From Deltaproteobacteria bacterium (GTDB taxonomy: Bacteria; Myxococcota_A; UBA9160; UBA6930): a stretch of DNA of 64,000 bases. Below the pieces are notes generated by a model. The model was given only the letters and a program-made list of their open reading frames with translations. It did no database searches and was not told the origin of the DNA. The stretch spans positions 40,098 to 104,097 of the forward strand of contig JAFDCZ010000001.1 in assembly GCA_019312665.1 (NCBI GenBank). Direction: 5' to 3'. This document shows positions 3,127 through 55,795 of the stretch, piece by piece; the stretch's first letter is position 1, and every line of letters starts with the position of its first letter. The position numbers were made by a program, and so were the translations under genes.

Positions 3127-3129
3127 GGG

Positions 3130-3801: not shown

Positions 3802-3816
3802 GTCGAAATCTCCTCG

Positions 3817-4464: not shown

Positions 4465-4472
4465 GATCGCTC

Positions 4473-4519
4473 CTAAACTGTAGAGACGACCATAACTTTA
4501 GATGACAATCTAAGTTTAG
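4473..4519. promoter_or_regulatory. AT-rich palindromic operator/promoter candidate upstream of the TetR-gamma-beta-alpha operon
   Basis: CTAAACT (4473-4479) and AGTTTAG (4513-4519) form a perfect 7-bp inverted repeat. It flanks an inner imperfect palindrome, aactttagatgacaatctaagtt. The element sits in a roughly 100-bp AT-rich gap between the TetR start (4464) and the convergent end of the CoA-transferase gene (4571). Confidence 0.4.
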
Positions 4520-4570
4520 TGCAAGGTCAAAATTGAGATTTCGCCCTACGGAGCTCCAACAATGGGCGGC

Positions 4571-7059: not shown

Positions 7060-7111
7060 GAATCCCCCCCTGGCCTTCGACCCCCCCCACTTCGTGACGA
7101 AGGTGCCGGCC

Positions 7112-7143
7112 TTGACGTATCCTAACTCAAGAGTAAGCTACTA
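7112..7143 (+). promoter_or_regulatory. Candidate sigma70-type promoter overlapped by a palindromic operator motif in the divergent region between the CoA-transferase operon and a TetR gene
   Basis: TTGACG (7112-7117), a 16-nt spacer, then TAAGCT (7134-7139), ending 7 nt before the TetR ATG at 7146 (near-leaderless). TAACTCaaGAGTAAGCTACT (7123-7142) recurs at 18/20 identity in reverse orientation at 53100-53119. Confidence 0.35.
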
Positions 7144-12664: not shown

Positions 12665-12714
12665 GGCCAGGGCTCGAAGCGAGACGCCGGCAACGCAACG
12701 AAGAGGAGAGCGTC

Positions 12715-13698
12715 ATGGATGCAAAACCGATTGTGGTTTGCACGTGGAACGAGAGCCAGGGAGGGCTCACGGTGGGTGCGGAAGAAGCACTCACCCTCGG
12801 CCGAGGGGTGGCAGGCGCTACAGGTGCGAAGCTCCGTTTGCTGGTGCTCGGACCGCTTCCCGAGGCGGCCATGGAAACGGCCGGACGCTTCGGCGCGGAC
12901 GCTGTGGACTGGATCGAAGACGCCGCGCTCGAAGCGTTCTCACCAGACGCCTACGTAGAGGCCCTCGCCGGCTACTGCCAGCAAGAGTCGCCGGCGCTCG
13001 TGCTCTTCAACCAGGCCGCAGACACCCGCCTCGTGGCCCCGCGCCTGGCCGGGCGCGTGGGCGCCGGTGTCGTGATGAACGGTGTCGACGTTTCGGTCGG
13101 CGAAGGCGGAGGCCTCCAGGCCACTGCCTCGGCCTACGGTGGCGATACGCAGATGGTCTACGAGCTATCCGGGGCGCCTTCGTACGTGGTGGCGCTCAGC
13201 GCCAACGCGCTGCTCCCCGAACCTGCGGAGGGCGGCCCGACCGAGCCGGAATGCCGAGTGATCTCGAGCGATCTCAGCGGCGTGCAGGAGCGCGTTCGCG
13301 TAATCGAGCAGGCCCGAGCGGAAGGCCCGCGCCTGGAAGACGCCGATATCATCGTGTCGGGCGGGCGCGGCCTGGGCGGGCCCGAGAATTACAAGCTGAT
13401 CGAGCAGCTCGCCGAGGCTCTCGGCGGGTTGGCGGGTGCATCCCGGCCCATCGTCGACGAGGGCTGGGTGGACTCTTCCCAGCAGGTGGGCCTGACCGGC
13501 AAGATCACCCGACCGGCCCTGTATCTGGCCGCGGGGATCTCGGGCGCAAGCCAGCATATGGCCGGGTGCTCCGCCGCCAAGACGATCGTCGCGATCAACA
13601 GTGATCCGGACGCCGCGATCTTTCGCTACGCCCGCTACGGCCTGGTAGGCGATTGCCTGGAAATCCTCCCCGAGCTGATCCGGGCGGCGAGACAATGA
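12715..13698 (+). CDS. etfA: Electron transfer flavoprotein alpha subunit
   Basis: Trimmed to ATG 12715 behind GAAGAGGAGAG. C-terminal FAD-binding region IIVSGGRGLGGPENYKLIEQLAEALGGLAGASRPIVDEGWVDSSQQVGLTGKITRPALYLAAGISGASQHMAG. Confidence 0.9.
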   Translation: MDAKPIVVCTWNESQGGLTVGAEEALTLGRGVAGATGAKLRLLVLGPLPEAAMETAGRFGADAVDWIEDAALEAFSPDAYVEALAGYCQQESPALVLFNQAADTRLVAPRLAGRVGAGVVMNGVDVSVGEGGGLQATASAYGGDTQMVYELSGAPSYVVALSANALLPEPAEGGPTEPECRVISSDLSGVQERVRVIEQARAEGPRLEDADIIVSGGRGLGGPENYKLIEQLAEALGGLAGASRPIVDEGWVDSSQQVGLTGKITRPALYLAAGISGASQHMAGCSAAKTIVAINSDPDAAIFRYARYGLVGDCLEILPELIRAARQ

Positions 13699-13717: not shown

Positions 13718-14158
13718 ATGACGACCCACGAGCGGATTCCCGTGATGGAAGGGTTGTTCGCCGAGACGGCGGAGGGGCCGCGCCTGCTGGGCTCGCGCTG
13801 CCAGACCTGCAGCACACCCTACTTCCCTCGATCCGCCGTCTGTCACAACCCGGATTGCGGGGAGAGCCGGATGGAGAACGCCGACTTCGGCCCGCGGGGC
13901 CGGCTGTGGAGCTGTGCGATCCAGAACTACCCGCCGCCGCTGCCCGCCCGGTACGAGGAGCCCTACATCCCCTACGCCGTCGGCGTCGTCGATCTCGACG
14001 AAGGCTTGCGGGTCGTCGCGCGCATGAGCGTCGATGATCCGGATTCCCTGGAGCTGGACGCCGAGGTGGAGCTCACGATCGAGCCCATCTACCGGGACGA
14101 CGAGGGCCGCGACGTCACGACCTGGAAGTTCAAGCCACTCCAGCCAGGCCGCAGTTGA
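13718..14158 (+). CDS. DUF35 family Zn-ribbon/OB-fold protein (thiolase/aldolase partner, BbsA/ChsH2-DUF35-like)
   Basis: 146 aa. Zn-ribbon CQTCSTPYFPRSAVCHNPDC followed by OB-fold-like YAVGVVDLDEGLRVVARM. Lies immediately upstream of a thiolase-like gene. Confidence 0.85.
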   Translation: MTTHERIPVMEGLFAETAEGPRLLGSRCQTCSTPYFPRSAVCHNPDCGESRMENADFGPRGRLWSCAIQNYPPPLPARYEEPYIPYAVGVVDLDEGLRVVARMSVDDPDSLELDAEVELTIEPIYRDDEGRDVTTWKFKPLQPGRS

Positions 14159-14186
14159 CGCCGCAGGGTCGGAGAGAGGATCCACC

Positions 14187-15368
14187 ATGAGAGACGTAGC
14201 CGTGCTGGGCGCGGGGATGCATCCCTGGGGCAAGTTCGCGGACCGGTCCGTCACCGCGATGTGCCGTGTCGCGACCGAAGCCGCGCTCGCCGATGCCGGC
14301 GTGGCGTGGCGCGACGTGGAGGCCGTTGCGGCGGCGAGTTCCCGCTTCTCGGGCGGCAAGGGATGGGGCCTCAACGGCAACGACGTCGTCGAGGAGATGG
14401 GATCCACCGGCATACCCGTCTACAACCTCTCGGCGGGATGCGCGGCTGGTGGTAATGCCTTCAATATCGGTTGGCTCCTGGTCGCCAGTGGCGCGCACGA
14501 TTGCGTCCTGGTCGTCGGCGGTGAGAAGATGCCCAAGGGCTTCATCCAAACCTCCGGGCTGGAGGAGGACACCGATCCCGAGCACTTGCGACAGCTCTGC
14601 GTGGGTATGCCCGGTCCCACCTTCTGGGCCGCCCTGTGCCGACGACGCATGAAGGATTTCGGTACCAGCGAGGAAGATCTTGCCCGGATCGCGGTCAAGG
14701 CCCACCGGATCGGCAAGCACAATACGAACGCCCGCTTTCGGCAGGAATTCACTATGGAGGACGTCCTCGGCTCCGCCATGGTGAGCTATCCGCTGCACCT
14801 CTACGAGATCTGCCCGGTGAGCGACGGTGCGGCGGCCGTGGTGATCTGTTCTGCGGACGTAGCCCGGAAGCGAACCACGCGACCCGTGTGGGCCGCATCG
14901 AGCAGCGTCGCTACGGCGCGCTTCGACGACGGCCTCCCGCGCGGGCTCGGCACCGTGGTGCCGCAGGCGGGACCGACCTGCCACAGTGAAGCCAGCTTGG
15001 CCGTGGGCAAGGCGCTGGAATCCGCAGCGGTGGCCCCCACGGAACTCGACCTTGTGGAACTGCAAGACAACACCGTCTTCTACGAACTCGCCTTCCCAGA
15101 AGACTGGGGCCTGTGTCAGCCCGGTGAGGCCGAGCGCCTCGTGGAGAAGGGAGAAACCCTCCCAACGGGCAAACTGCCGATCAACCCCAGCGGCGGCTTC
15201 CTCTGTTTTGGAGAAGCGACCACCGCGATGGGCGTGTTCCAGATCTGCGAGCTGACCTGGCAGCTGCGAGAACAGGCAGGGGCCAGACAGGTCCCGGGGG
15301 CGAAGATCGCCCTCGCACAGACCCTCGGCCTGGGTGGCAACGCCACCGCTGCGGTTCTCAAGAACTAA
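14187..15368 (+). CDS. Thiolase-superfamily protein, SCP-x/lipid-transfer type, non-canonical C-terminal catalytic residues
   Basis: Trimmed to ATG 14187 (MRDVAVLGAGMHPWGKF). The nucleophile-elbow Cys is kept (NLSAGCAAGGNAF). The usual GHP and HNxGG His positions read FGEATT and AQTLGLGG. Confidence 0.85.
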   Translation: MRDVAVLGAGMHPWGKFADRSVTAMCRVATEAALADAGVAWRDVEAVAAASSRFSGGKGWGLNGNDVVEEMGSTGIPVYNLSAGCAAGGNAFNIGWLLVASGAHDCVLVVGGEKMPKGFIQTSGLEEDTDPEHLRQLCVGMPGPTFWAALCRRRMKDFGTSEEDLARIAVKAHRIGKHNTNARFRQEFTMEDVLGSAMVSYPLHLYEICPVSDGAAAVVICSADVARKRTTRPVWAASSSVATARFDDGLPRGLGTVVPQAGPTCHSEASLAVGKALESAAVAPTELDLVELQDNTVFYELAFPEDWGLCQPGEAERLVEKGETLPTGKLPINPSGGFLCFGEATTAMGVFQICELTWQLREQAGARQVPGAKIALAQTLGLGGNATAAVLKN

Positions 15369-15393
15369 CGAAGTGAATGAGGAGAAGCCCCCA

Positions 15394-16494
15394 ATGGCCA
15401 AGGATCCGCTGCGAACGAAGCTATGCGACATGCTGGAGATCGAGTACCCGATCATCTCATTCACCCATTGCAAGGATGTGGCGGTATCCGTCATCAACTC
15501 CGGCGCCTTTGCGGTGCTGGGGGAGGCCATGCACACGCCGGACGAGATCGCGGCCGACATCAAGTGGATCCGTGACCGGGTGGACGGCAAGCCCTTCGGA
15601 GTCGACCTGGTGCTGCCCGCGTCGGTTCCGCTCTCGGGCACCCTGGAGGATCTGGAGAAGAAAATCCCGGACACACATCGGGCGTTCGCTCAGCAGATCA
15701 AGGAGAAGTACGACGTCCCCGATCCCAAGGGGCCCATCGCACTCCATCAGTGGGGCGGCCTGAATCAAGAAATGGCGCGCGGCCAGCTCGAAGTGTTGCT
15801 CGAAGAACGCGTACCCGTCATCTGCTCGGGCCTGGGTAGCCCGGCCTTCATCCTCGACGCCGCCCGCGAGCGTGGCATCAAGATCTTCGGCCTGATCGGC
15901 AAGACCCGGCAGGCCAAGCGGCAGATCGAAGCCGGCGTGGACGCGGTCATCGCGCAGGGTTACGACGCAGCGGGCCACACCGGCGCGATGGGGACCTTCT
16001 CGATCGTCCCGGAGGTCGTCTCCATTGCCGGCGACATTCCCGTCATCGCCGCCGGGGGCATCACCACAGGCCGTCACCTCGCGGCCGCCCTATGCCTGGG
16101 TGCCGCCGGAGTGTGGACAGGAACCCTGTGGCTTGCCTCGCGGGAGTCCGATGTGGACATGATCGTCAAGGAGAAGCTCCTTGCCGCGACGGCCGACGAC
16201 ACCTCCTACTCCCGCTGCATCTCGGGCATGACCATGCGCACGCTGAAATGCCCCTGGACCGAAGAGTGGTCCAAGCCCGAGGCTCCGCCCGTGTTGCCGG
16301 CGCCCTATCAGATGCTTCTCAGCTCCGAGTACATCCAGGGCGCCAACGACAACCGCCGGGAGGATCTGATGACCGAGGCCGCCGGCCAGGGCGTGGGCTT
16401 CGTCACTTCGATGAAGCCCGCCCGCCAGATCGTCTTCGACCTGGTCGAGGAAGCCCTCACCGCCATCGAGGACGTCACCGGCGAGCTTCCGTGA
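15394..16494 (+). CDS. FMN-dependent nitronate monooxygenase / enoyl-reductase (NMO, FabK-like) family protein
   Basis: Trimmed to ATG 15394 behind GAGGAGAAG. VDAVIAQGYDAAGHTGAMGTFSIVPEVVSIAGDIPVIAAGGITTGRHLAAALCLGAAGVWTGT. Confidence 0.85.
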   Translation: MAKDPLRTKLCDMLEIEYPIISFTHCKDVAVSVINSGAFAVLGEAMHTPDEIAADIKWIRDRVDGKPFGVDLVLPASVPLSGTLEDLEKKIPDTHRAFAQQIKEKYDVPDPKGPIALHQWGGLNQEMARGQLEVLLEERVPVICSGLGSPAFILDAARERGIKIFGLIGKTRQAKRQIEAGVDAVIAQGYDAAGHTGAMGTFSIVPEVVSIAGDIPVIAAGGITTGRHLAAALCLGAAGVWTGTLWLASRESDVDMIVKEKLLAATADDTSYSRCISGMTMRTLKCPWTEEWSKPEAPPVLPAPYQMLLSSEYIQGANDNRREDLMTEAAGQGVGFVTSMKPARQIVFDLVEEALTAIEDVTGELP

Positions 16495-24550: not shown

Positions 24551-24694
24551 ATGAACGGCGAAGAGGAACGCGACGTGCTGGCCCGCGAGTTCGATCGCCA
24601 GCGTGCCGTAGAGGGCGACATCCTGGAGGCGATCGCAACCGACAACGAGAAACACCCGTGTCTGCTGGCGATGGTGGAGAAGCCGATCCCGTGA
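24551..24694 (+). CDS. Hypothetical 47-aa protein translationally coupled to alpha subunit 3 (alternative start 24485 gives 69 aa)
   Basis: Strong GAAGGAAGCGAGG lies directly before ATG 24551. High G/C at codon position 3. MNGEEERDVLAREFDRQRAVEGDILEAIATDNEKHPCLLAMVEKPIP. Its TGA (24692-24694) overlaps the GTG 24691 that starts the Tat signal of the alpha gene (GTGA). Confidence 0.35.
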   Translation: MNGEEERDVLAREFDRQRAVEGDILEAIATDNEKHPCLLAMVEKPIP

Positions 24695-27594
24695 ACCCCA
24701 CGCGTCGGCAGTTCCTGAAGCTGTCGGGCGCGGCAGCGGCGGCCACAACCGGCCTTCCCCTCTTCCACTTCCGGATCGCGGAAGCCTCACAGCCGGCTCC
24801 GAAGCTCGCGAGCTGGGAAGACCTCTACCGAGAACGGTGGACCTGGGATTCCATCGTCAAGGGATCCCACGGTTGGGCCAATTGCCGCAGCGCGTGTGCA
24901 TGGGATCTCTACGTCAAAAACGGGATCGTCGTTCGCGAAGAGCAGAATGCAGCCTACGAGGCCTCGGAGCCGGGCGTCCCGGACTTCAACCCTCGCGGAT
25001 GCCAGAAGGGGGCTTGTTACACCGAGGTGATGTATGGCCCCAGCCGTCTCAGCGTGCCGATGAAGAGAGTCGGAGAGCGCGGTTCGGGCCAGTGGCAGCG
25101 CATCAGCTGGGACGAGGCCATCGACGAGATCGCGACGAAGATGTTGATCCTCGCCGAAGAACATGGAACGGACACCATCTACCAGGATCTGGGGCCCAAC
25201 TTCGATCACGGCGCAACGACCGTGGGCCGTTTCAAGTTCCAGATGAAGGCCGGCGGGATGTTCGCCGACATGTGGGCGGAGATCGGCGATCTCAACATCG
25301 GCGCCACGCTGACCCTCGGCATGGCACATATCGGCGGCTCCAGCGACGAGTGGTTCCTCTCCGACTTCCCGGTGGTGTGGATGATGAACCCCGCCGTCAC
25401 GCAGATCTCCGACGTGCACTTCCTGTTCGAGGCCCAGCACAACGGCTCTCAGCTCACGGTGATCGACCCCCAGTACAGCGCCACCGCGGCCCACGCCGAT
25501 CTGTGGCTTCCAATCGAAACCGGCACCGACGCAGCGCTCGGGCTCGCGGTCGCCCGCCACATCTGGAGCAGCGGGAACCTGGACGTCGAGTACGTGCGCG
25601 AGCAGACCGATTTCCCGCTCCTGGTGCGCCTGGACACCGGGCGCTTCCTACGAGGCACAGACCTTCTGCCGGACGCGAAGCAGACCGGAAAGGAAGACCT
25701 CCTCTTCCTGTGGAATCCGACCATCGGACGCGCTGAGCCCGCGCCGGGCTCGCCGGGGGCAGACCAGGGCAAGTTGATCGTCGAGGGCTTCACACCGCCC
25801 ATCGAAGGGACCTTCCTGGTCGCGCTGGCCGACGGTTCGGAGGTCGCCGTCAGCACGGCAGGCAGCATCCTGCGCGAGCATCTCGACCCCTGGACCTTCG
25901 CGGCCGCAGCGGAGGTGACCCGCCTCGCCCCGGAGGTGATCAAAAGGTTCGCCGATGGTTTCGCCAACGCGGAACGCCCCATGATCCTTTCGAGCTGGGG
26001 GTCGAACCGCTTCCTGCACTCGGACCTGATGAATCGCACCAAGCTTCTGTGTCTGGCGATGAAGGGAGCCATCGGCAAGCGGGGTGCCGGATACCAGGCG
26101 ACGGGCATGATGGGCATGGCAGGATTCGGCTCGGCGTTGCAGATGAACCGGACCGGGATCCTGGGCCGACTTGATCTGATGCTCGGCTTGATGTCGCCCG
26201 GAGAACTCTTCGACACGGCGGTGGATCTCGTCAAGCGTCGCAGGAGTTACGAAGACGTGATCTTCGAACAGGCCACCACTGGAGAAGACAAGTCCGTCTG
26301 CGCCACCAACGTCTCCACCCTGAACTATCATCATCAAGGCATCGCGGAACGGCTCGAGATGGAAATCGACGGTCAGTACCCGCGATCTCTGGGAGCCTAC
26401 GTCCGAGAAGCCGAGGAGAAGGGCTGGCAGCACAAGCTGCCCCGCAGCGGTCAGCCGCGGGTCTACATCACCGGCGGGAGCAATCTGCTGCGCCGGGGAA
26501 ACCAGACCCAGGCGATGCTCCAGAACATGTGGCCGGGCATCGACCTCGTCGTCGCCATCGACCAGAAGATGAACTTCACGGTGATGAACTCGGACTACAT
26601 CCTCCCGGCTGCCGGCTGGTACGAGAAGCCCGGCATCAAGTACGCCATGTCCTACATCCCCTACCTCCACTACTGCGACGTCGCGGTGAAGCCCCTGGGC
26701 GAAGCCAAGGACGAGTGGGAGATCTTCTGGCTGCTCTCGAAGAAGATCGAGGAGATCGCGAAGCTCCAGAACACGCCCACATTCGATGGCTGCGGCAAGT
26801 TTCCCGTCGACTGGAAGAGGCTCCACCAGGATTACTCATGCCAGGGCGAGTACGGCCCGAAGGACGCGGAAAAGGTCACCCAGCACGTCATCGACAACAG
26901 CCCGTCGGTGGCCGGAATCAGGATCGAAGATCTGAAGAAGACGGGTATCGAGAAGTTCCGCAACACAGGCCTCAACATGAGTCCCTCGTTCATGTTCAAC
27001 CCGGACTGGAAGGGCGAAGGCGTCCTGTCAACGCTGACGCACTTCACGAAATACAAATGGAGCTGGCCCACGTTCAGTGGGCGCCAGCAGTTCTACATCG
27101 ACCATCCCTGGTTCCTGGAGGCAGGCGAGGCGCACCCCGTGCACAAGGCGAGCCCGAAGGCGGGCGGCGACTATCCCTTCCGGCTCGTCTCGTGCCATAG
27201 CCGCTGGAGCATCCACAGCACCTGGCGCGACCTGCCGATGCTGCTCCGCCTCCAGCGGGGAGAGCCCGCGATCTACCTCAACGAGGCAGAGGCCTCGGAT
27301 CTGGGCTTGGCGGACGGCGAGTGGGCGGAGCTCTACAACGACCTCGACACGATGAGAATGCGCATCAAGTACTCGACCATGGTGCGCCCGGGCGTCGCCT
27401 ACTACTTCCACGGTTGGGACCCGAGCCAGTTCCCCGAACACAAGAGCTACAAGTGGCTGATTCCCGGCCTGATGAATCCGCTTCACATGGCGGGTGGACA
27501 GGGGCATCTCCACTTCGGAATCAATCATCTGGAATCCGGGGCCTTCATCCGGGACACGCGCGTGGGAATCCGCCCATGGGCCCGAGAGAGTTGA
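24691..27594 (+). CDS. Type II DMSO-reductase-family Mo-bisPGD alpha subunit, EBDH/S25DH-like, paralog 3; no adjacent beta/gamma
   Basis: The track ORF starts at GTG 24658. I prefer GTG 24691, which gives (M)NPTRRQFLKLSGAAAAATTGLPLF as a Tat signal. SHGWANCRSACAWDLYVKNG and NPRGCQKGAC (FS0 motif), AEIGDLNIGATLT (candidate Mo-ligand Asp). Collinear with paralogs 1 and 2, roughly 50% identical by eye. Confidence 0.85.
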   Translation: MNPTRRQFLKLSGAAAAATTGLPLFHFRIAEASQPAPKLASWEDLYRERWTWDSIVKGSHGWANCRSACAWDLYVKNGIVVREEQNAAYEASEPGVPDFNPRGCQKGACYTEVMYGPSRLSVPMKRVGERGSGQWQRISWDEAIDEIATKMLILAEEHGTDTIYQDLGPNFDHGATTVGRFKFQMKAGGMFADMWAEIGDLNIGATLTLGMAHIGGSSDEWFLSDFPVVWMMNPAVTQISDVHFLFEAQHNGSQLTVIDPQYSATAAHADLWLPIETGTDAALGLAVARHIWSSGNLDVEYVREQTDFPLLVRLDTGRFLRGTDLLPDAKQTGKEDLLFLWNPTIGRAEPAPGSPGADQGKLIVEGFTPPIEGTFLVALADGSEVAVSTAGSILREHLDPWTFAAAAEVTRLAPEVIKRFADGFANAERPMILSSWGSNRFLHSDLMNRTKLLCLAMKGAIGKRGAGYQATGMMGMAGFGSALQMNRTGILGRLDLMLGLMSPGELFDTAVDLVKRRRSYEDVIFEQATTGEDKSVCATNVSTLNYHHQGIAERLEMEIDGQYPRSLGAYVREAEEKGWQHKLPRSGQPRVYITGGSNLLRRGNQTQAMLQNMWPGIDLVVAIDQKMNFTVMNSDYILPAAGWYEKPGIKYAMSYIPYLHYCDVAVKPLGEAKDEWEIFWLLSKKIEEIAKLQNTPTFDGCGKFPVDWKRLHQDYSCQGEYGPKDAEKVTQHVIDNSPSVAGIRIEDLKKTGIEKFRNTGLNMSPSFMFNPDWKGEGVLSTLTHFTKYKWSWPTFSGRQQFYIDHPWFLEAGEAHPVHKASPKAGGDYPFRLVSCHSRWSIHSTWRDLPMLLRLQRGEPAIYLNEAEASDLGLADGEWAELYNDLDTMRMRIKYSTMVRPGVAYYFHGWDPSQFPEHKSYKWLIPGLMNPLHMAGGQGHLHFGINHLESGAFIRDTRVGIRPWARES

Positions 27595-36253: not shown

Positions 36254-37459
36254 TCAAAGGCGGGAAGCCGCCATCAGACCCAGGAAATCGTTCTCACCGT
36301 CCTCGATGAGCGATGCGCGGGCATCCCGGAAGAGCTTCTCCACCGGGTACTCTCGGGTCAGCCCGTTACCGCCGAAAATTTGGACCGCATCGTGCGCCAC
36401 CTCGTAAGCCGTCTGGGTACAGAAGATTTTCGAAGCTGCGGCGTGCTGGAAGGGGATATCGGAAACGGCCGCCTCGACAGCGACCCGTCGCGCCAGCGCA
36501 CGAGCGCCCTCGACCTTGGAGAACATCCGGAACAGCCGCGCCTTCACGTTCTGGTGTTGGATGATGGGTACCCCGCCCTGAACGCGCTCCTTCGCGTAGG
36601 ACAAGGCGTGATCCAGGGCGGCACGGGCCACACCGACGAACTGCTGCCCCATCGCGGAGTTCGCCATCTTCAGCACCATCTCCCACACCATCCCGTAGGC
36701 ATCCGGGCCGCCGATCAAAAGGAAGGCTTCCGGTACCCGCACTTCGTCGAAGAAGATCTCACCCTGGTTGAGAGACCGCTGTCCGATCTTGTCGAGTGGT
36801 TTTCCCCGGCTGACACCAGGAAGTTCCAGCGGAACCAGGAATGCCGCGCCCCCCTTCAATCCGTCCTTGGAATCCTCCATCGTGCAGAACAGCGCCGCCG
36901 CGGTCGCGATCGTGCCGTTGGAGACCCAGGCGGCCTTCTGGCCGTTGATCACGTACTCGTCACCTTCCAGGCGAGCGCGACAGCTCGGCCGCACCGCGGG
37001 ATCGCTGAAGATGGGCTCCGTGAACCCGACGTGATCGCTGCCGTGGTCGGACTCGGTCAGGGCCAGACAGCCGATGTCGTCCCGCTTGCTGAAGAACTCG
37101 TAGGCCTCCTGCCTTCCAAAGCCCTGGGCCCAGGGTGCGATGGTGTCGCAGAGCCCCACGGAGATGGCCAGCCCGACATCGCCCCAGCTCAACTCCTCCA
37201 GGACCACAGCGTGCAGCAGAGCGCGGTCCGCCGGGCTCAGATCCGGGTCGTACTTGCTGGGGTCGCCGATGCCCAGCTCCTTGTAGCGGTCGAATACCTT
37301 CCAGAGCACCGAGCCCGGTGCGATCACGTCCGAAGCGTCGGGCATCCGATCGAGTTCCGCCGCCGCGGGCCGCATCACCTCCAAGGCGAAGCGATGCACC
37401 GTCGCCCGAATCTCCTTCATGTCATCACTGAGAGCAGCGTCCAGGGGGTAGTCCGTCAT
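36254..37459 (-). CDS. Acyl-CoA dehydrogenase
   Basis: 401 aa. CLALTESDHGSDH, INGQKAAWVSNG and QIFGGNGLTREYPVEKLFRDARASLIEDGENDF. Its ATG overlaps the alpha-2 stop as ATGA (37456-37459). Confidence 0.9.
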   Translation of the reverse strand: MTDYPLDAALSDDMKEIRATVHRFALEVMRPAAAELDRMPDASDVIAPGSVLWKVFDRYKELGIGDPSKYDPDLSPADRALLHAVVLEELSWGDVGLAISVGLCDTIAPWAQGFGRQEAYEFFSKRDDIGCLALTESDHGSDHVGFTEPIFSDPAVRPSCRARLEGDEYVINGQKAAWVSNGTIATAAALFCTMEDSKDGLKGGAAFLVPLELPGVSRGKPLDKIGQRSLNQGEIFFDEVRVPEAFLLIGGPDAYGMVWEMVLKMANSAMGQQFVGVARAALDHALSYAKERVQGGVPIIQHQNVKARLFRMFSKVEGARALARRVAVEAAVSDIPFQHAAASKIFCTQTAYEVAHDAVQIFGGNGLTREYPVEKLFRDARASLIEDGENDFLGLMAASRL

Positions 37460-40380
37460 GTTCGTTCTCCTGAAAATTGGGGACCGCCCGCCAGCCGCTC
37501 CACCTCGACCCGGGTTCCCCGGTCGGGGCAGCCAGGCTCACCCATGAGCAGCGTGGGCTGGAGCTGGAAGTAGCCGCCCGCCAAATGTATCGGGTTCATG
37601 GGGCTCGGAATCAGCGACTGGTGTGATTTGCCGTGTTTGAACTGGAAGGGCTCCCAGGCGTGGTAGACCACGACCTGTCCCGGGCGCACGGAGGACGTGA
37701 CTTTGGCCTGGATCTCGAAGGAGCCGATGTCGTTGTGGACGCGTACAGAACTTCCGTCTTGGATACCGCGCTCGGCGGCGTCCTCATCGCCGAGGAAGAT
37801 GAGCGGCTCACCCCGCTGCAGTTGAAGCAGGGTCTGGTTGTCCCGCCATGAAGCATGGATGGACCAACGGTCGTGGCCTCCGGTCATCTCGAGGGGGTAC
37901 TCGCCACCGAGCTTCGGGTTGTCCTTGTGAACGGGCAGCTCCTCCCCCATCTCCAGGAAGTACGGATGGTCGATGTAGAACTGCATCCGTCTGGTGAGCG
38001 TGGGCCAGGGCTGCTTCTTCTGAACCTGCCAGGTATTCGCCGTGATGGTCTGGTCCGGCTCGATATCGGTTGCGTGGTTGATCTGGGAGGGGCTCATGCC
38101 TACGCCCGTGTAGCGCGCGTAGCCCTTCTCCTTGATCTCCTTCCATCGCACGCCACCGAGATTCGTGGTCACGGCGAGCATCTCGTCGAGGACCTCCTCG
38201 GTATTCTCCTCCGTGAAACGTCCGCCGAACGTGAACTCGTCGTAGACCTGATCCAGACGCCGGGTCTCTCCCGCACGGTCCACGAATTCGGAGATGCCCC
38301 GCTCGATCGCGCGCTGCTGCAGCGTCTTCAGGAAGAGGCAGTGGAACTCCCAGTCGGGCTTCGACTCGCCAAGCGGCTCGACCGCGCGGGTCGTCACGTG
38401 GCAAAATGGCGTGATGGGGGATCCCCAGGTGAGGTCGTCCTTCTCGTACCAGCCCGCCGCAGGGAACACGTAGTCGCTGAAGCGCGCCGTGTTGCTCATC
38501 CGCCAATCGACCGTCACGAGCAGATCGAGCTTCGGCAGAAGCCCGTCGATCATCCGGTCGTAGCCCCGCACCCGGCGCAACAGATTGCCACCGACTTCGA
38601 ACACGATGCGCGGGGGCGTGGTGGGGACCACCTGCCATCCCTTTGCCACGGCTTCGTCGAAGTACTCCTTGAACTCGCGGGGCAGCGAAGGATCCCAACG
38701 TTTCGCGCTTCCGTAGAGTTCCTCGAGCCCCCCATACTTGTAGAGCCACAGCGGAGTGGCGAGGTAGCGCCCGGACTTGTACTCCAGACGGCTCAAGGCG
38801 GAGATCATCATCTCCTCGGAGAAGCCATCCAGCTTCATCCTGGCCATCGCGGGCAAGGCCTGGAGGCCGAGGACAGCGAGGCCGAGCTTGGGAGAAAGCT
38901 TGCCGTTGGCCACGGCGAGCGCATCCGGACCCGCGATGGAGAGGTAGGGAAAGGCTGCGATTCCGGCGCCCTTCTTCCCGATCTGACCCGCCAGGGTGAA
39001 GGCCAGGATCAGGCCCCGTTCCATTTCCATACCGTGGTAGTACTTGGAGAAGTTCGTCTGGGTGATGGCGCTGGCCGCCTTGGCGGTCGCCAACGCCCGC
39101 GCCAGCTTGCGGATCTGCTTCGGAGGCGTCCCAGTGATCACGGATGCAGCCTCCGGGGTGTACTCCGCGAGGCGTTTCTTCAGCAATGCAAAGACCGGCG
39201 TCACGCCGACCTCGCCTGTCCGCGTCTGTACCCGGTATTCTCCCTCGAGGCTGGGATCGAGTTCGCCGAGAGCCAGGGTCGATCGCGGTGCCGGGACCAC
39301 CTTTCCCGCCTTCTGATCAAAAATGTAGAAGGCGTCTTCCCGGCCACCCTCCTCCAGGTCGCTCTCGCGCAGGAAGAGGCCGGTGTCTTCACGCACCAGG
39401 AAGGGCAGATCGGTTTGCTCGACGACGAAGTGACGGTCGAAGATCTCCTCCTCGACCATCACCTGCGCCAGCGCCATCCCCAGGGCCGCATCGGTTCCCA
39501 TCTGCACCGGAACCCACTCGTCCGTGTGGACGCAGGAGGCGTTGTAGTCCGGCGTGATCGCTACCACGCGCGCCCCGTGGTAGCGGGCCTCATTGATGAA
39601 ATGGACGTTGGGGATCTGGGTGTAGTTGGGATTGCCGCCCCAGATCAGGATCAGGTCGGAGTAGAAGAGATCATCGAAGGAGCCGGTGAAGCAGATCTTC
39701 CCAGTCGTGACAGTGGCGCCGGGATAGTGGTCGCCGATCTCCGTGTTCGTCTCGAGCATCGGCGTGTCGAGCACGGAAACGGTGCGCGTCAGCCCGAGAC
39801 CATGGCAGCCATTGGTGATGGCGCTTCCCATGTCCCAGATGATGGAGCCGGGCCCATCCTCTATCAGGGCATCGATGGCGGAATCGGCCACCTCGCGCAG
39901 CCCCTCCTCCCAGGAAATGCGCTTCCAGCGCCCCTCGCCGCGTTCCCCGACGCGCTTGAGCGGGTGCAACATGCGCGACGGGTCGTGCATGCGGTCGCTG
40001 TAGCAGGCCCCCTTCTGGCATCCGCGCGGGTTGAAGTCGGGCACCTCGGAATTGGTCTGCGGATAGTCGCCTACCTGTTCTTCGCGCCAGACCACGCCAT
40101 CCTTGACGTAGACGTTCCACGCGCAGCCGCGCTGGTAGGCGCAGTTCACGTAGTGGGTGCTCTTGGAGATGGAATCCCAGGTCCAGCGCTCACGGTAGAG
40201 GTCCCGCCAGTCCCCGTACGCGGGCGTGGGGGGCGGAGCCGCGGGAGAAACGGATTCGACGAGTTCCGCCTCCTGACAGCGGAGCTGGGTGAGAGCGAGC
40301 ACGACGGTCGCTCCGGATCCCCAGAGGAATTCCCGCCGGTTGATGCCTGGCGTTCTCGCGCGGTCGACGTCGAATCCCAT
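37456..40380 (-). CDS. Type II DMSO-reductase-family Mo-bisPGD alpha subunit, EBDH/S25DH-like, paralog 2; no adjacent beta/gamma
   Basis: The 1021-aa track ORF was trimmed to ATG 40380, which sits 1 nt after the upstream hydratase stop. MGFDVDRARTPGINRREFLWGSGATVVLAL (Tat signal), STHYVNCAYQRGCAWNVYVKDG and NPRGCQKGAC, TNTEIGDHYPGATV. Confidence 0.9.
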   Translation of the reverse strand: MGFDVDRARTPGINRREFLWGSGATVVLALTQLRCQEAELVESVSPAAPPPTPAYGDWRDLYRERWTWDSISKSTHYVNCAYQRGCAWNVYVKDGVVWREEQVGDYPQTNSEVPDFNPRGCQKGACYSDRMHDPSRMLHPLKRVGERGEGRWKRISWEEGLREVADSAIDALIEDGPGSIIWDMGSAITNGCHGLGLTRTVSVLDTPMLETNTEIGDHYPGATVTTGKICFTGSFDDLFYSDLILIWGGNPNYTQIPNVHFINEARYHGARVVAITPDYNASCVHTDEWVPVQMGTDAALGMALAQVMVEEEIFDRHFVVEQTDLPFLVREDTGLFLRESDLEEGGREDAFYIFDQKAGKVVPAPRSTLALGELDPSLEGEYRVQTRTGEVGVTPVFALLKKRLAEYTPEAASVITGTPPKQIRKLARALATAKAASAITQTNFSKYYHGMEMERGLILAFTLAGQIGKKGAGIAAFPYLSIAGPDALAVANGKLSPKLGLAVLGLQALPAMARMKLDGFSEEMMISALSRLEYKSGRYLATPLWLYKYGGLEELYGSAKRWDPSLPREFKEYFDEAVAKGWQVVPTTPPRIVFEVGGNLLRRVRGYDRMIDGLLPKLDLLVTVDWRMSNTARFSDYVFPAAGWYEKDDLTWGSPITPFCHVTTRAVEPLGESKPDWEFHCLFLKTLQQRAIERGISEFVDRAGETRRLDQVYDEFTFGGRFTEENTEEVLDEMLAVTTNLGGVRWKEIKEKGYARYTGVGMSPSQINHATDIEPDQTITANTWQVQKKQPWPTLTRRMQFYIDHPYFLEMGEELPVHKDNPKLGGEYPLEMTGGHDRWSIHASWRDNQTLLQLQRGEPLIFLGDEDAAERGIQDGSSVRVHNDIGSFEIQAKVTSSVRPGQVVVYHAWEPFQFKHGKSHQSLIPSPMNPIHLAGGYFQLQPTLLMGEPGCPDRGTRVEVERLAGGPQFSGERT

Positions 40381-43812: not shown

Positions 43813-46239
43813 TCATTCGCCCGCAGCCGGTTGCTGCGCGGCGCGGATCAGCGTCCACAGCCGGTTCGGGCTCGCCGGAACCTCGGTCGCCCGCGCGCCC
43901 ATGGGTGCCAGGGCATCGTTGATGGCGGAGAGGATGGCGGCGGGCGTCGTATGCATCGCGCCCTCGCCGCAACCCTTGGCGCCGAGCGGCGTGAAGGGCG
44001 AAGGCGTCACGACGATTCCCTTCTTCGTGGCCGGCACCTCGTAAACGGTCGGGAGCAGGTAGTCCATGAAGCTCGAGGTGAGGATCTGCCCCTGCTCGTC
44101 GTAGACATACTCTTCGAGGAGCGCTGCACCTACGCCCTGGGCGATGCTGCCCTCGGTCTGCCCCTCCACCGTGGCGGGATTGAGGCGAGTGCCGCAATCG
44201 TCGACGACGCAGTACTCGAGGATCTCTACGAGCCCCGTCTCGGGATCCACCTCCAGCATCACGACGTGCACCGCCTGGGCGGCTGTGAGGTAGCTCTTCG
44301 CCCTGCCCTCCTCGTCGACCTCCGTGCGACCGGGCGCCGTCCAGACGTGGGTCGCTTCGGGGCGCGGGTCCACGTCGGGAGGCAGAAGATCGCTCCGCGC
44401 CAGCATGGTGCCCACGACCTGGGCCATCGGCATCTCGACGCCGGCCACCCCCTTGGCCACGAGCTTCCCGTCCACCAGGTCCACCTGCTCCGGATCCATC
44501 TGGAAGAGCCCGGCCGCCACCTTGGCGAGCTTCAGCCTGAGCTTCCCGCAGGCGCCGAGCACGGCGCCGGTGAGCGCCACGCCCAGACGGCTCCCACCCG
44601 GGCCGAACGCCGGGGGCGCCGAATGCGTGTCCAGGCAGACGACCGTGATGTCCTCGAACCCCACGTTGAAGTAGTCCGCCACGAGTTGGGTCGCCAGGGT
44701 GTACTGGCCCTGCCCCTCCAGGGCAAAGCCGACCCGCACGCTGATCTTCCCCATGATGTCGATGCTGACGGTCGCGCCCTCCGGCACGCCTGTCCCCTGC
44801 ACGCCCACGATCGCGTAGGCGTTCCAGTCGAAGACGCCGGGCTCGATGGCGCTCACGACGCTGATGCCGACGCAACGACCCTCTGCCCGGGCCTGATCCC
44901 GCCGTTCGCGGAGCTTCCCGTAGTCCGCGAGCGCGAGCGCCTTGTCGAGCACGGCCTCGTAGTCGCCGCTGTCGTACTCGTTGCCGCTAGCAATCGTGTA
45001 GGGGAAGGAATCCTTCGGGATGAAGTTCGTGCGCCGGAACTCCGCAGGGTCGATGTCGAGATCGCGTGCAGCGATGTCCATCATCTGTTCCAGCACGCAG
45101 TTATGCGGCGGCGGCCCCATTCCACGGTACGGACTCTGGGGCAGCTTGTTGGTAGCGACGATCGTCAGGTCGTAGCGCGCAACCGGGATGGCATAGGGCC
45201 CGGTGAACGAGGCCAGCGGCTTCGCCGTACTGATGGCACCGAAGCCCTCACCCGTGGCCCCCATGTCGTCGAGCAGCTTGACGTCGAGGCCCGTGACGCG
45301 GCCGTCGTTCTTCACGGCAAGGGAAACCTCGTAGTGGCGATCCCAGGCCTGGCCTCCACCGCCCGTCAAATACTCCGCGCGATCTTCGATCCACTTCACC
45401 GGCCGACCGCCGGCCTTGCGGGTCAGGAGCGCCGTGACATCGGTACCTCGCGTGCCGCCTTTGCCGCCGAAACTCCCGCCGTGGGGATGGGCGATCACGC
45501 GCACCTTGTTGGACGGAAGTCCCAGAACGGCGGCCCGGCCCAGCCCGAAGTGGGTGGCGGATTGGACACTCGCCCGGAGCGTGAGGCTCTCGTCCACCGG
45601 GTCCCATTGGGCGATCACTCCGAACGTCTCGAGAGGATTGGCGCCCAGGCGATGCCAGCGGAACTTCTCGGTGAAGACACGATCTGCGTCGCCGAACGCC
45701 CCGTCGACATTGCCCCAGGTGAAGACCCGTTGGAGCATGACGTTGGTGCCCTTCTCCTCGATCACCAGGGGACTGCCCGGCTCCATCGCCTTCACGGGGT
45801 CGACCACGGCCTCGAGGGACTCATAGTCGACGGCGATCAGCTCGATGGCATCTTCGGCGACGTAGCGGTTCACCGCGGCCACCGCCGCCACGGGCTCGCC
45901 CACGTAGCGCACCTTGTCCCCCGCGAGGCAATGGGTGCCCCATTCCTCGGGCACCGTAGGTTCCGGATGGCTCCACCGGCGGGCGTCGTCGGAGGTCACC
46001 ACCGCGATCACGCCGGGCAGCTTCTCGGCCTCGTTGATATCGATCGAGACGATTCGCGCGTGGGCGACGGGACTGCGCAGGATGGCTGCATGCAGCATTC
46101 CCGGCAGGACCACGTTGTCGATGAACTCCGTGCGCCCGGTGACGAGATGCGGGTCCTCCACGCGCGGGACGCCACGGCCCACCCAGCGCGGCGCGCTGTT
46201 GGGAAAATCTTCCAGGGTTTTGGGGATCTGGACGGACAT
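43813..46239 (-). CDS. Xanthine-dehydrogenase/CoxL-family molybdopterin-binding large subunit (not a CO-dehydrogenase type)
   Basis: ATG 46239 lies 5 nt after GGAG (MSVQIPKTLEDF); the alternative start ATG 46263 lies directly after the S-subunit TAG. WVGRGVPRVEDPHLVTGRTEFIDN, HPHGGSFGGKG, QSPYRGMGPPPHN, VDDCGTRLNPATVEGQTEGSIAQG and LGAKGCGEGA. Confidence 0.9.
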   Translation of the reverse strand: MSVQIPKTLEDFPNSAPRWVGRGVPRVEDPHLVTGRTEFIDNVVLPGMLHAAILRSPVAHARIVSIDINEAEKLPGVIAVVTSDDARRWSHPEPTVPEEWGTHCLAGDKVRYVGEPVAAVAAVNRYVAEDAIELIAVDYESLEAVVDPVKAMEPGSPLVIEEKGTNVMLQRVFTWGNVDGAFGDADRVFTEKFRWHRLGANPLETFGVIAQWDPVDESLTLRASVQSATHFGLGRAAVLGLPSNKVRVIAHPHGGSFGGKGGTRGTDVTALLTRKAGGRPVKWIEDRAEYLTGGGGQAWDRHYEVSLAVKNDGRVTGLDVKLLDDMGATGEGFGAISTAKPLASFTGPYAIPVARYDLTIVATNKLPQSPYRGMGPPPHNCVLEQMMDIAARDLDIDPAEFRRTNFIPKDSFPYTIASGNEYDSGDYEAVLDKALALADYGKLRERRDQARAEGRCVGISVVSAIEPGVFDWNAYAIVGVQGTGVPEGATVSIDIMGKISVRVGFALEGQGQYTLATQLVADYFNVGFEDITVVCLDTHSAPPAFGPGGSRLGVALTGAVLGACGKLRLKLAKVAAGLFQMDPEQVDLVDGKLVAKGVAGVEMPMAQVVGTMLARSDLLPPDVDPRPEATHVWTAPGRTEVDEEGRAKSYLTAAQAVHVVMLEVDPETGLVEILEYCVVDDCGTRLNPATVEGQTEGSIAQGVGAALLEEYVYDEQGQILTSSFMDYLLPTVYEVPATKKGIVVTPSPFTPLGAKGCGEGAMHTTPAAILSAINDALAPMGARATEVPASPNRLWTLIRAAQQPAAGE

Positions 46240-52481: not shown

Positions 52482-53063
52482 TCAGCCCGTCTGCCGAGCG
52501 AAGAGCCGGTGGAAGAAGGCTGCGACGGGCGCCCAGATGACGCCAAGGATCACGCGCAGCAGGGGAACCGACTCGTCAGCAACCGGGGCCTCTGACAAGG
52601 TGTCCGAGGCCGGCGCTTCCAGGGCCTGGCGCGTCCGGGTAACGAATTGCCCGAAGAGCTGGCTCGAGACGCCCTGGATCATTCCGCGTCCGACCTGCAT
52701 CACGCGGCCGGTGAGATCCACCTCCGCCGAGGTGACCACTTCGGTCTGCCCATCTGGGAGGGTGCGCAGCTCGGCCGTGACCGTGCCCTTGGCCGTGCCG
52801 CCGCCGGTCTCTCGACCCTCCGCCACCATGCACACGCGACGTGCCTGTTCATCGACATCGCGGAGATGCACCCGCCCGCGATAGCGCGTGGTGATGGCGC
52901 CCAGTTTGATCTTCACCGCGCCGTTGAAGGTGCGGGCATCGACCACTTCCTCCAGCACCGCTCCGGGCATGCAGGTGACGACGCGATGCGGGTCCAGCAG
53001 GAATTGCCAGACGGCCTCGATGGGCACCGCGACCTGGAAGGTCTCCTCGATCTGGATCGACAT
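52482..53063 (-). CDS. CoxG/SRPBCC-family protein with a C-terminal hydrophobic tail
   Basis: 193 aa. MSIQIEETFQVAVPIEAVWQFLLDPHRVVTCMPGA, LGAITTRYRGRVHL and VDLTGRVMQVGRGMIQGVSSQLFGQF. Tail VPLLRVILGVIWAPVAAFFHRLF. Confidence 0.8.
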   Translation of the reverse strand: MSIQIEETFQVAVPIEAVWQFLLDPHRVVTCMPGAVLEEVVDARTFNGAVKIKLGAITTRYRGRVHLRDVDEQARRVCMVAEGRETGGGTAKGTVTAELRTLPDGQTEVVTSAEVDLTGRVMQVGRGMIQGVSSQLFGQFVTRTRQALEAPASDTLSEAPVADESVPLLRVILGVIWAPVAAFFHRLFARQTG

Positions 53064-53273: not shown

Positions 53274-55349
53274 ATGGAGCCTACCCGCGAGATCTATTGG
53301 AACATCGTCGGTAGCGGGCTGCTCTACTTGCTCGCGCTCGTCGCGGTCGCCCTCTTCGTCTGGGGCGTGTTCCGTCGAGCTCGGCTGTGGCGCCTCGGAA
53401 CCCCCGAAGCGCGGTGGGACCGCATCTGGGAGCGCGCGAGTGGGCTCCTGATGGAAGTCTTCGGCCACCGGCGGCACCGGCGGCGATCGTTCCCGGCCCT
53501 CATCCACGTGCTCATCTTCTACGGTTTCCTGGCCCAGTTCGTGGCGACCTCGATGATCTCGCTGCAGGAGTGGTCGGGCATACATTTCCTGCGCGGCTCC
53601 TTCTACCAGGGCTACTCGCTGCTAAGCGACGTGTTCGGAATCCTCGCCATCATCGGCCTGTGCATGGCGCTCTGGCGACGGCTGGTTCTGCAGCCACCCC
53701 ATCTCCACTCCTTCATGGATGACTGGTTCAGTCTGGGCCTCCTGCTGGTCCTCTTCGTCCAGGGCTTCATCCTCGAGGGTTGCCGCATCGCCGTCACCGA
53801 GTTGCACCAACAGCCCGACCTCGCACTTTGGTCCCCCGGAGGTTATGCGGTGGCGCTGCTGCTCGACGGCCTCGGCAGCGACCCGCTGAGCGCAATTCAT
53901 CGCTCCCTCTGGTGGATCCACGGAACGACGGCCTTCCTCTTCATCGGCTACCTGAGTCATGGGAAGCTGGGGCACGTCCTCTACGGACCCCTCAACATCT
54001 TCCTGCGCGACCTCGACGGCAGCGGCAAGCTCTCGCACCCAGACATCGAAGCCGTGCTGGACAGCGACCCGGACGCCCTCGAGAACCTGGGCGTGGCACG
54101 ACTCGATCAGTTCACGTGGAAGCAGCTGCTCGACATGGACGCCTGCGTGAACTGCGGGCGCTGTGAAGAGGTGTGCCCGGCCCACTTGAGCGGCGCCGCT
54201 CTCAGCCCGCGGAAGCTCGTCCAGGATCTGAAGCAACACCTGCATGAGACGGGCCCCGCCTTCCTGAGTGCTTCTGCGGGATCGGAACCGGAACCGGGAT
54301 CGGAACCGGACCTGCCTCGGCTCGTCGAGCCGTCCTCCGGAGCGACACCTCGAACGGCCGTGACGGAAGAGGAGATCTGGGGCTGCCGCACCTGCGGTGC
54401 CTGTCAGACGGAATGCCCTGTCTTCGTCGAACACATCCCGACGATCATCGACATGCGGCGCAACCTGGTCATGACCGAGGCACGCATGGGCGAGGAGACC
54501 CGGCAGTTCCTCAAGAACATCGAAGACCGAGCGCATCCCTGGGTGGGTACGCCCCACGACCGCGAGGGCTGGTTCGCCGATCTCGACATCAAGGTGTTGG
54601 GGCGAGGCGACACTGCGGAATACCTCTTCTGGGTCGGCTGCACCGGTGCCCTGGTCGACCGGAACATCAAGGTCACCCGCGCCATGGTCCGCGTGCTGCA
54701 GGCAGCGGGTGTGGACTTCGCCGTGCTGGGCGCCGAGGAGTCCTGCACCGGCGACCCGGCGCGTCGGGCCGGCGAGGAACTCAGCTTCCAGACCTGCGCA
54801 AAGACGAACATCGAGACGTTCGAGAGATACGGCGTAGAGAAGATCATCACGACCTGCCCCCACTGCTTCAACAGCTTCAAGAACGAGTACACGGATTTCG
54901 ACGGGCGCTACGAGGTCGTCCACCACACCCAGTTGATCGCCGACATGGTTCGCAGCGGGCGCCTACGCCTCCGCGAAGAGCTGCCGTCCCTCACCTACCA
55001 CGATCCGTGCTACCTCGGCCGTCACAACGAAGTCTACGATGAGCCGCGCAAGATCCTCCGCGGGCTCTCCCAGCCCGGAGGCTTCCGGGAGATGGAGCGA
55101 AGCCGATCTCGCGCGCTCTGCTGCGGGTCTGGAGGAGGCTACGCATGGATGGACGATTCGGCCCCGGAGCGGATCAACCATCAGCGCCTGGAAGACATCC
55201 GCTCCAGCAAGGCAAGCACCACAGCCGTTTCGTGCCCCTTCTGCATGCAGATGTTCGACGAGGCCCTGGGCGCCAAGGATCCCGAGGGCAGCATCCGTGT
55301 GGCCGACATCGCAGAACTGGTGGCCGACGCCCTGGACGAGGAAACATGA
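53274..55349 (+). CDS. Membrane-bound FeS oxidoreductase: NarI-like heme-b membrane domain fused to an HdrD/GlpC-like 2x[4Fe-4S] + CCG domain (ETF:menaquinone-oxidoreductase-like)
   Basis: 691 aa. It has 5-6 hydrophobic helices in the first ~230 aa, with conserved His (IHVLIFYG, WWIHGTTAF). CVNCGRCEEVCP and CRTCGACQTECP. CCG-type region ALCCGSGGG ... VSCPFC. ATG follows GAAGGA. Confidence 0.85.
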   Translation: MEPTREIYWNIVGSGLLYLLALVAVALFVWGVFRRARLWRLGTPEARWDRIWERASGLLMEVFGHRRHRRRSFPALIHVLIFYGFLAQFVATSMISLQEWSGIHFLRGSFYQGYSLLSDVFGILAIIGLCMALWRRLVLQPPHLHSFMDDWFSLGLLLVLFVQGFILEGCRIAVTELHQQPDLALWSPGGYAVALLLDGLGSDPLSAIHRSLWWIHGTTAFLFIGYLSHGKLGHVLYGPLNIFLRDLDGSGKLSHPDIEAVLDSDPDALENLGVARLDQFTWKQLLDMDACVNCGRCEEVCPAHLSGAALSPRKLVQDLKQHLHETGPAFLSASAGSEPEPGSEPDLPRLVEPSSGATPRTAVTEEEIWGCRTCGACQTECPVFVEHIPTIIDMRRNLVMTEARMGEETRQFLKNIEDRAHPWVGTPHDREGWFADLDIKVLGRGDTAEYLFWVGCTGALVDRNIKVTRAMVRVLQAAGVDFAVLGAEESCTGDPARRAGEELSFQTCAKTNIETFERYGVEKIITTCPHCFNSFKNEYTDFDGRYEVVHHTQLIADMVRSGRLRLREELPSLTYHDPCYLGRHNEVYDEPRKILRGLSQPGGFREMERSRSRALCCGSGGGYAWMDDSAPERINHQRLEDIRSSKASTTAVSCPFCMQMFDEALGAKDPEGSIRVADIAELVADALDEET

Positions 55350-55795
55350 GCCGCACCCGGCCCGACGCGATGCTCCAGGAACTCGCCGATCGGGAGGCCA
55401 TTCGGGATCTCGCCTGCCGCTATGCCCACCACGTCTGGCAGAAGCAGGCCGCCGCTGCGGCCAGCCTGTTCACGGAAGACTGCGAAATGGACACGGGCGA
55501 GCCGCCGGTGATCCGAGGGCGGGCGGCGCTGGGCGAGACCTACAAACGCGTGCTAGGCAACGGCGCCTTCCAGCCCTTCGTCTCCAACCATGTCATCACA
55601 CTCGCCGGCGACGAGGCAAGCGGGACCTGTTACCTCGACCTGCGAGCCACGACCGACGGTCGCAGCATGATCGGATCGGGCTACTACGAGGATCGCTACC
55701 AGAGGGTCGATGGTGAATGGAAATTTCGGGCACGGAAGCTCCACATGTCATGGCTCGTCCCTCTCGAGCAGGGTTGGGCCGATCAGGCTTCCTGA
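55346..55795 (+). CDS. SnoaL-like / NTF2-fold protein
   Basis: Trimmed to ATG 55346, which overlaps the upstream stop as ATGA. LQELADREAIRDLACRYAHHVWQKQAAAAASLFTEDCEMD ... SNHVITLAGDEASGTCYL ... YEDRYQRVDGEWKFRARKL. Confidence 0.75.
   Translation: MSRTRPDAMLQELADREAIRDLACRYAHHVWQKQAAAAASLFTEDCEMDTGEPPVIRGRAALGETYKRVLGNGAFQPFVSNHVITLAGDEASGTCYLDLRATTDGRSMIGSGYYEDRYQRVDGEWKFRARKLHMSWLVPLEQGWADQAS

Follow-up and report, generated by a model that had tools for sequence, protein, structure and literature searches.

The emo locus and its product

The window, the whole stretch of 64,000 nucleotides that was analysed, carries emo (etfD) on its forward strand at 53274-55349 as an uninterrupted reading frame, with an SD-like AAGGA ahead of the ATG; a sigma-70 scan detected no promoter. 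The 691-aa product is composed of a NarI-like five-helix membrane domain (residues 15-243; 53316-54002, forward strand), two cubane [4Fe-4S] motifs (C291/294/297/301 and C371/374/377/381; 54144-54416, forward strand) and a non-cubane-cluster (CCG) domain holding the ligands of FeS3 and FeS4 (54621-55325, forward strand). In Pfam, the Nitrate_red_gam match to the membrane domain was weak and under the cut-off (residues 116-245, E 0.0013), the Fer4 di-cluster was placed at residues 286-383, and two CCG stretches together scored 111 bits. The CxxCxxCxxxC motif occurs twice, starting at C291 and C371. An AlphaFold model built with 83 homologues (pLDDT 86, pTM 0.86) shows five long helices towards its N-terminus (15-39, 72-101, 108-139, 148-174 and 202-226), and these match the five TM helices of EtfD. 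The initial annotation had described a fusion of a membrane domain to two [4Fe-4S] motifs and CCG motifs, and this fusion is borne out by Pfam, motifs and model. As to the CCG motifs, two CCG domains are indeed present but only the second carries a literal CCG, the first reading C491-T492-G493. Elsewhere in the genome, on contig C18, a 574-aa protein (L095:6328-8049) combines a NarI-like domain with a 4Fe-4S dicluster at its C-terminus, with no CCG hit and no NCBIfam match at 1e-12.

Family assignment and cofactor ligands

Mycobacterium smegmatis EtfD (9OJN) was the sole full-length PDB match by sequence (E 1.1e-101) and also the sole full-length fold match of the AlphaFold model (Foldseek E 4.9e-37, TM 0.86), with Hdr subunits matching partially. 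The single-chain plan of EMO/EtfD, consisting of NarI-like five-TM, two-cubane and CCG/NCB domains, was found by Pfam, alignment and model, and all EtfD ligands map onto the emo product, where they are invariant or near-invariant among 120 homologues. It is therefore almost certain that the 691-aa protein belongs to the EMO/EtfD family of ETF:quinone oxidoreductases. This agrees with the initial annotation, which had called it EMO-type and not ETF-QO-type; ETF-QO (PDB 2GMH) shares the physiological role of EMO but is an unrelated FAD/[4Fe-4S] protein. The accompanying view of EMO as a trait of syntrophs and sulfate reducers was too narrow, since the closest solved relative is that of M. smegmatis and no dsrA was found in the source genome (G000, 90% complete). 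The family, whose members are membrane enzymes that hand electrons from oxidations of the fatty-acid kind to the respiratory chain, is already described: two of its structures are known, its homologues run into the thousands (of 8000 scored candidates, 4641 reached E 1e-50 or better), and the emo product itself is ordinary.

Ligand numbering was taken from PMC13083937 and bioRxiv 10.64898/2026.08.18.745454 and mapped via the 9OJN alignment. The proximal heme b ligands are H78 and H234 and the distal ligand is H216 (aligning to M. smegmatis H78, H241 and H223); all three were kept in 120/120 homologues, so that the loss of heme-ligand conservation which would have spoken against the initial annotation was not observed. 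The quinone-site residues Phe85 and Phe230 of EtfD correspond to F85 and F223, and its R137 and R306 to R136 and R296. The FeS3 (D2) ligands C579, C616, C617, C654, C657 and H530 are invariant in the 120 homologues. At FeS4 (D1), C456, C491, C528 and C531 are accompanied by T492, the counterpart of M. smegmatis T539 in the linear [3Fe-4S] motif of EtfD, so that the two proteins share all D1 and D2 ligands and with them the Thr responsible for the linear cluster. EtfD and the emo product differ in that they are only about 31% identical and in that the latter has no 30-kDa disordered tail. Position 492 is Thr in 105/120 homologues, Ser in 8/120 and Cys, as in Hdr, in 7/120, while 2/120 have the Gly at 531 that is found in SaEMO, which means that the type of FeS4 varies inside one clade.

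The two residues H530 and T492 also bear on whether the protein could be a quinol:disulfide reductase of sulfur metabolism resembling DsrMK/HmeCD or HdrDE, since features of this type render EMO clusters non-catalytic relative to Hdr (PMC13083937). Such enzymes have NarI-like and CCG domains in common with the emo product, and the HdrB, DsrK and QmoC models gave weak matches, but this identity is extremely improbable given that DsrK scored 54 bits against a cut-off of 400 and QmoC 51 against 300, that dsrA was not found, that the full-length fold match was restricted to EtfD, and that the full cysteine set and open CoM/CoB site of HdrDE at both non-cubane clusters are replaced here by T492 in the place of the Hdr cysteine and H530 filling the thiol-binding site, as in the non-catalytic clusters of EtfD. 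The protein is thus not DsrMK and not HdrDE, and the grouping with DsrMK/Hme that had been named as counter-evidence was not seen in the model scores or the fold match. The emo product is also distinct from FadF of Bacillus and DgcB of Pseudomonas, which are homologous fusions (Bacillus homologues are 33-36% identical to it) but lack the D1/FeS4 cysteines that it retains as C456, C491, C528 and C531.

Another known relative is SaEMO, the ETF:methylmenaquinone oxidoreductase of Syntrophus aciditrophicus (SYN_02638; bioRxiv 10.64898/2026.08.18.745454), which is of the same size class and three-domain plan. By its published residue numbers, it shares with the emo product three heme His of which the last two are 18 residues apart, a Phe 7 residues past both the first and the second His, and the FeS3 His ligand. 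By the same numbering, Gly535 and a [4Fe-5S] cluster in SaEMO stand against Cys531, directly after the FeS3 His, and Thr492 in the emo product, and 14 positions past the first His an Ala of SaEMO is matched by a Thr. Furthermore, the emo locus is without a syntrophy context.

In SaEMO the distal twin heme is carried on H233 and E187 binds a cation, while A101, 14 residues past the first His, stands at the other axial position, which is Ser in the HdrE model (bioRxiv 10.64898/2026.08.18.745454). In the emo product the residue at +14 is T92, and E168 lies 48 residues ahead of H216 (46 in SaEMO). Among the 120 homologues T92, H209 and F85 are invariant and E168 and F223 near-invariant in the membrane domain. 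Since EtfD has Tyr, Arg and Glu where the emo product has T92, E168 and H209, the latter appears to represent another membrane subtype, which may hold a distal heme. The Thr/Glu/His set is common to many homologues and absent from FadF-like ones, and H216, T92 and E168 are compatible with a stacked distal twin heme of the SaEMO type, judged by the published SaEMO residue numbers. A distal heme in the emo product is on balance plausible from these residues. An equivalence of E6 with SaEMO E22 was considered and dropped, the spacing to the first His being 72 against 65. A different lineage of EMOs, described below as replacements, has a His 14 residues past the first heme His (L085:4206-6155, L086:3673-5640, L087:5413-7383 and L089:7114-9276), making it a candidate for a bis-His distal heme; this fits a +14 position that faces the distal heme.

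The catabolic island and its own ETF

The genes for an island-type EtfB (11849-12664, forward strand; its start agrees with orthologues) and EtfA (12661-13698, forward strand; likely start 12715 by orthologues) lie 39.6 kb upstream of emo, in accordance with the 40 kb given in the initial annotation. They form a conserved cassette with genes for a ChsH2/DUF35 protein, a thiolase-like protein and a FabK/NMO-family flavoprotein (13718-16494, forward strand). The only acyl-CoA dehydrogenase in the window is encoded at 36254-37459 on the reverse strand and is a candidate ETF donor. Also on the reverse strand are the gene for an AtcA-like molybdoenzyme large subunit (43813-46239), which served as an island marker, and that for a CoxG-family protein (52482-53063), divergent from emo. 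CoxG is found beside EMO or within a few kb of it in most loci, including those with a replacement EMO. Homologues of the AtcA-like protein at 84% and 73% identity carry the JGI name 3-oxo-Delta1-steroid hydratase/dehydrogenase, and a KstD-like protein in the island scored 619 bits, under the cut-off. Since the KstD-like protein and the ChsH2-type DUF35 protein occur together with a molybdoenzyme whose homologues are named for steroids, we read the island as one of steroid catabolism. It is probably an oxygen-independent steroid-degradation island, with the probable steroid substrate resting on the annotation names of homologues. No paper on EMO in steroid-degradation clusters was found in a literature search that covered a minority of the subscription papers. 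The genome is rich in large molybdoenzyme paralogues of the DMSO-reductase family (37-59% identity; window 24658-27594 and 37456-40380; contigs C133, C142 and C250), several of which lie just upstream of the window. At window 2389-7125, three long forward-strand ORFs (559, 460 and 371 aa) have no Pfam hit, and the real genes there may be on the other strand.

The genome has a second outlet for ETF. A canonical ETF-QO, the finding of which had been named in advance as evidence against the initial annotation, is encoded on contig C388 (G000:C388:1-1496, L001), where the gene is truncated by the contig start; both Pfam domains are above the cut-off and the match to 2GMH has an E of 3e-94. A second EtfAB, about 30% identical to that of the window, is encoded on contig C274, and the acyl-CoA dehydrogenase C-domain was matched 88 times in the genome. 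Since ETF-QO was present in 55/61 genomes of the order, it is native and housekeeping there. The ETF-QO, the second EtfAB and the many dehydrogenase matches together imply that the emo product is island-specific and not the general outlet. The initial annotation, which had taken it as the outlet for EtfAB and the acyl-CoA dehydrogenase, must therefore be narrowed in this respect, while its link to the window EtfAB is strengthened by co-occurrence and synteny.

In a survey of 61 genomes of the window's order, island-type EtfB (at least 63% identity) and the AtcA orthologue (at least 66% identity) were found in the identical 18 genomes. An EMO match was present in all 18 of these as against 1 of the 43 others, and ETF-QO stood alongside EMO in 16/18. 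EMO was on the same contig as island EtfB or AtcA in 13 of the 18 genomes; in the single-contig genome G033, emo and etfBA are 2.6 Mb apart. The EMO was of the window-type clade (60-91% identical) in 11 of the island genomes and a different one (35-44% identical) in the other seven. Four of these seven replacement EMOs were put in a tree, which was limited to retrieved homologues and gave long-branch warnings at deep nodes, and formed a clade of their own with support 100/100. The replacement EMO adjoins CoxG; in G015 (with a gap of 6 nt) and G027 the next gene is the orthologue of the acyl-CoA dehydrogenase of the window, and in G041 it is the SnoaL orthologue. In two Binatia-labelled loci (L019 and L044) the gene order is emo-etfB-etfA-DUF35-thiolase-hydratase; in L044 it is the EMO that separates the FabK/NMO-family gene from etfB. 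EMO is thus associated with the etfAB and acyl-CoA dehydrogenase genes through adjacency in orthologous loci, not in the source genome. One further locus, L014, is titled Spirochaetaceae but its EtfB coordinates are identical to those of G050 of the window's own order, so the title is probably wrong.

In the class of G061, EMO is housekeeping, being found in 130/151 genomes (a tally that counts one unpublished genome, G152). Island EtfB occurs there in 24 genomes, 22 of which have an EMO match, but only one has the window clade, and the proposal that island EtfB always travels with the window EMO clade was therefore rejected. EMO was found within about 7 kb of island etfBA in none of 20 further loci of this class (L098-L117). 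In 18 of these 20 loci the gene next upstream of island-type etfB is the FabK/NMO-family gene, which is at 15394-16494 in the window. The presence of EMO in all 18 island genomes, together with its absence from the vicinity of etfBA where EMO is housekeeping, is consistent with an ETF that depends on an EMO-type outlet and supplies it in hosts without one. The 61 genomes are related and not independent, and some of this co-occurrence would arise for any island gene from co-inheritance by itself.

A comparable arrangement exists elsewhere. The second PDB match of the window EtfB, which is about 30% identical to the housekeeping EtfB, was 5OW0, which we take to be a G. metallireducens-type EtfB. 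The bbs operon of Geobacter metallireducens has its own ETF (Gmet_1525/1526) and EMO (Gmet_1527), that is, a pathway-dedicated ETF and EMO inside a catabolic cluster of the beta-oxidation type (PMC10818641). It differs from the present island in serving another pathway; here the genes are 40 kb apart and the host's housekeeping outlet is ETF-QO. The emo gene likewise differs from M. smegmatis EtfD and M. tuberculosis Rv0338c (PMC8593149) in being an accessory island gene beside ETF-QO and not the sole outlet.

Electron outlet, quinone acceptor and implications

From the observed architecture, ligand conservation, co-occurrence and synteny, we consider it likely that the emo product is a pathway-dedicated outlet for the window EtfAB, serving its catabolic island. 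By homology, a flavin dehydrogenase of the island, most likely the acyl-CoA dehydrogenase at 36254-37459, would reduce the island's own EtfAB, which in turn would be served by the EMO/EtfD-type ETF:menaquinone oxidoreductase, leaving general beta-oxidation to the housekeeping EtfAB/ETF-QO pair. The presence of an EMO in the island may reflect a requirement of the island ETF for an EMO-type outlet, which is otherwise absent from the order. The island ETF might discharge through ETF-QO as well.

The EMO may instead not be specific for one ETF but form a second, low-oxygen outlet for both, co-inherited with the island. The two ETFs and 88 dehydrogenase domain matches of the genome, the separation of emo from etfBA there and the Mycobacterium case, in which one EMO serves many dehydrogenases (PMC8593149), are in its favour. 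We nevertheless regard it as improbable, as 42 of the 43 island-free relatives have no EMO match although the housekeeping ETF is present, the same island slot is taken by two EMO lineages, and direct emo-etfB adjacency was seen with the island-type ETF only. Only slightly less probable is that ETF and EMO are a sink for a donor other than acyl-CoA, such as the AtcABC-like molybdoenzyme or the FabK/NMO-like flavoprotein, or that they run in reverse, from menaquinol to enoyl-CoA reduction. The reversibility of EMO in S. aciditrophicus (PMC8805022) is consistent with this, as are the distal-heme features in the emo membrane domain that are absent from EtfD, the place of the FabK/NMO-like gene directly upstream of etfB and the way in which CoxG keeps its position by EMO across the change of EMO lineage. 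Against this reading, the replacement EMO of two genomes is followed immediately by the orthologue of the acyl-CoA dehydrogenase, and the reading would in any case alter the donor or direction and not the family. We know of no precedent for AtcABC-like molybdoenzymes or FabK/NMO-like families as ETF donors.

Immediately downstream of emo is the gene for a 149-aa SnoaL_4/NTF2-fold protein (55346-55795, forward strand; E 7.5e-26), the ATG of which overlaps the emo stop at 55346-55349 (ATGA). The overlap noted in the initial annotation is real, but the pairing is not without precedent: it is common, with SnoaL directly downstream of EMO in 12 of the 17 informative loci of the clade, yet not obligate. 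If SnoaL were a dedicated subunit or maturation factor of EMO, the ATGA/GTGA coupling in close relatives and its recurrence after the replacement EMO of G041 would be accounted for. There is little likelihood of this, as SnoaL is not adjacent to EMO in L007, L009, L013, L019 and L044, the EMO-bearing island genomes G033 and G049 have no SnoaL match and G015 one of 35% only, SnoaL is found apart from EMO in G025, G027 and G056, and the solved EMOs are single chains. Orthologues with at least 50% identity were confined to island genomes (15/18, and 0 outside), some of them away from EMO. The nearest profiles were uncharacterised proteins, BaiE, LinA and ketosteroid isomerase, and the named structures among these act on steroids or other small molecules. 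The Asp-His dyad is catalytic in dehydratases of the LinA/BaiE type; the SnoaL neighbour has W31 and P77 at the Asp and His positions of the aligned structures, and Y26, H82, Y114 and D116 are conserved in it. Our best guess is that SnoaL would be transcribed together with emo and would act on or bind a steroid intermediate, as a protein of the island and not as an EMO subunit; nothing supports a functional tie between the two.

The initial annotation had proposed a comparison of menaquinone and ubiquinone biosynthesis, which favoured menaquinone across the order but found no menaquinone pathway in the source assembly. No ubiA was found in any of the 61 genomes, while menD was above the cut-off in 32/61 and menB in 36/61, and men or mqn genes were present in 15 of the 18 island genomes. 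Given the lack of ubiA and the frequency of men genes in the order, its ETF-QO probably reduces menaquinone rather than ubiquinone. In the source genome, no match to menB, menD, menA, menG, mqnA or ubiA reached the cut-off, and men, mqn and ubiA were also not found in G003 (a single contig of the same genus), G005 and G042. The MenB-like proteins of the source genome score under the menB cut-off; a MenA-like prenyltransferase, likewise under its cut-off, is encoded on contig C367 (L066:1369-2367). In G004, of the same genus, the complete men operon is found at a single locus. Sequences flanking the operon in G004 and in G002 could be placed within contigs of the source genome, and the operon site differs between these two relatives, so that a real loss of the men genes and a single locus that failed to assemble are both possible explanations. 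For the genomes with no recognised quinone pathway, auxotrophy or an unrecognised route is possible. Menaquinone is thus the likely acceptor for the EMO clade, and we hold this with good confidence, with the source organism itself having no recognised pathway in its assembly. Three heme O synthase genes above the cut-off (contigs C140, C206 and C224; L063-L065) suggest that the organism respires aerobically with heme-copper oxidases; a stand-alone NarI was not found in the genome.

A more far-reaching proposal, which we put forward only tentatively and consider rather unlikely as a whole, is that in an order which uses ETF-QO as its housekeeping outlet but shows no ubiquinone pathway the steroid island brings its own ETF-EMO since its ETF cannot use ETF-QO, and that this EMO is an uncharacterised hybrid which combines the linear [3Fe-4S] entry site of EtfD with a membrane domain carrying a Thr-ligated distal, possibly twin, heme. 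If this were true, steroid acyl-CoA oxidation would be electrogenic or reversible. At the level of the preferred reading, that of a pathway-dedicated outlet, a likely electron outlet can now be named for what is probably an oxygen-independent steroid pathway of uncultured bacteria labelled as Myxococcota. The presence of two unrelated ETF:quinone oxidoreductases and two ETFs in one cell provides a natural case for the specificity between an ETF and its outlet, and the EMO clade is a test object for what sets a single, double or twin heme.
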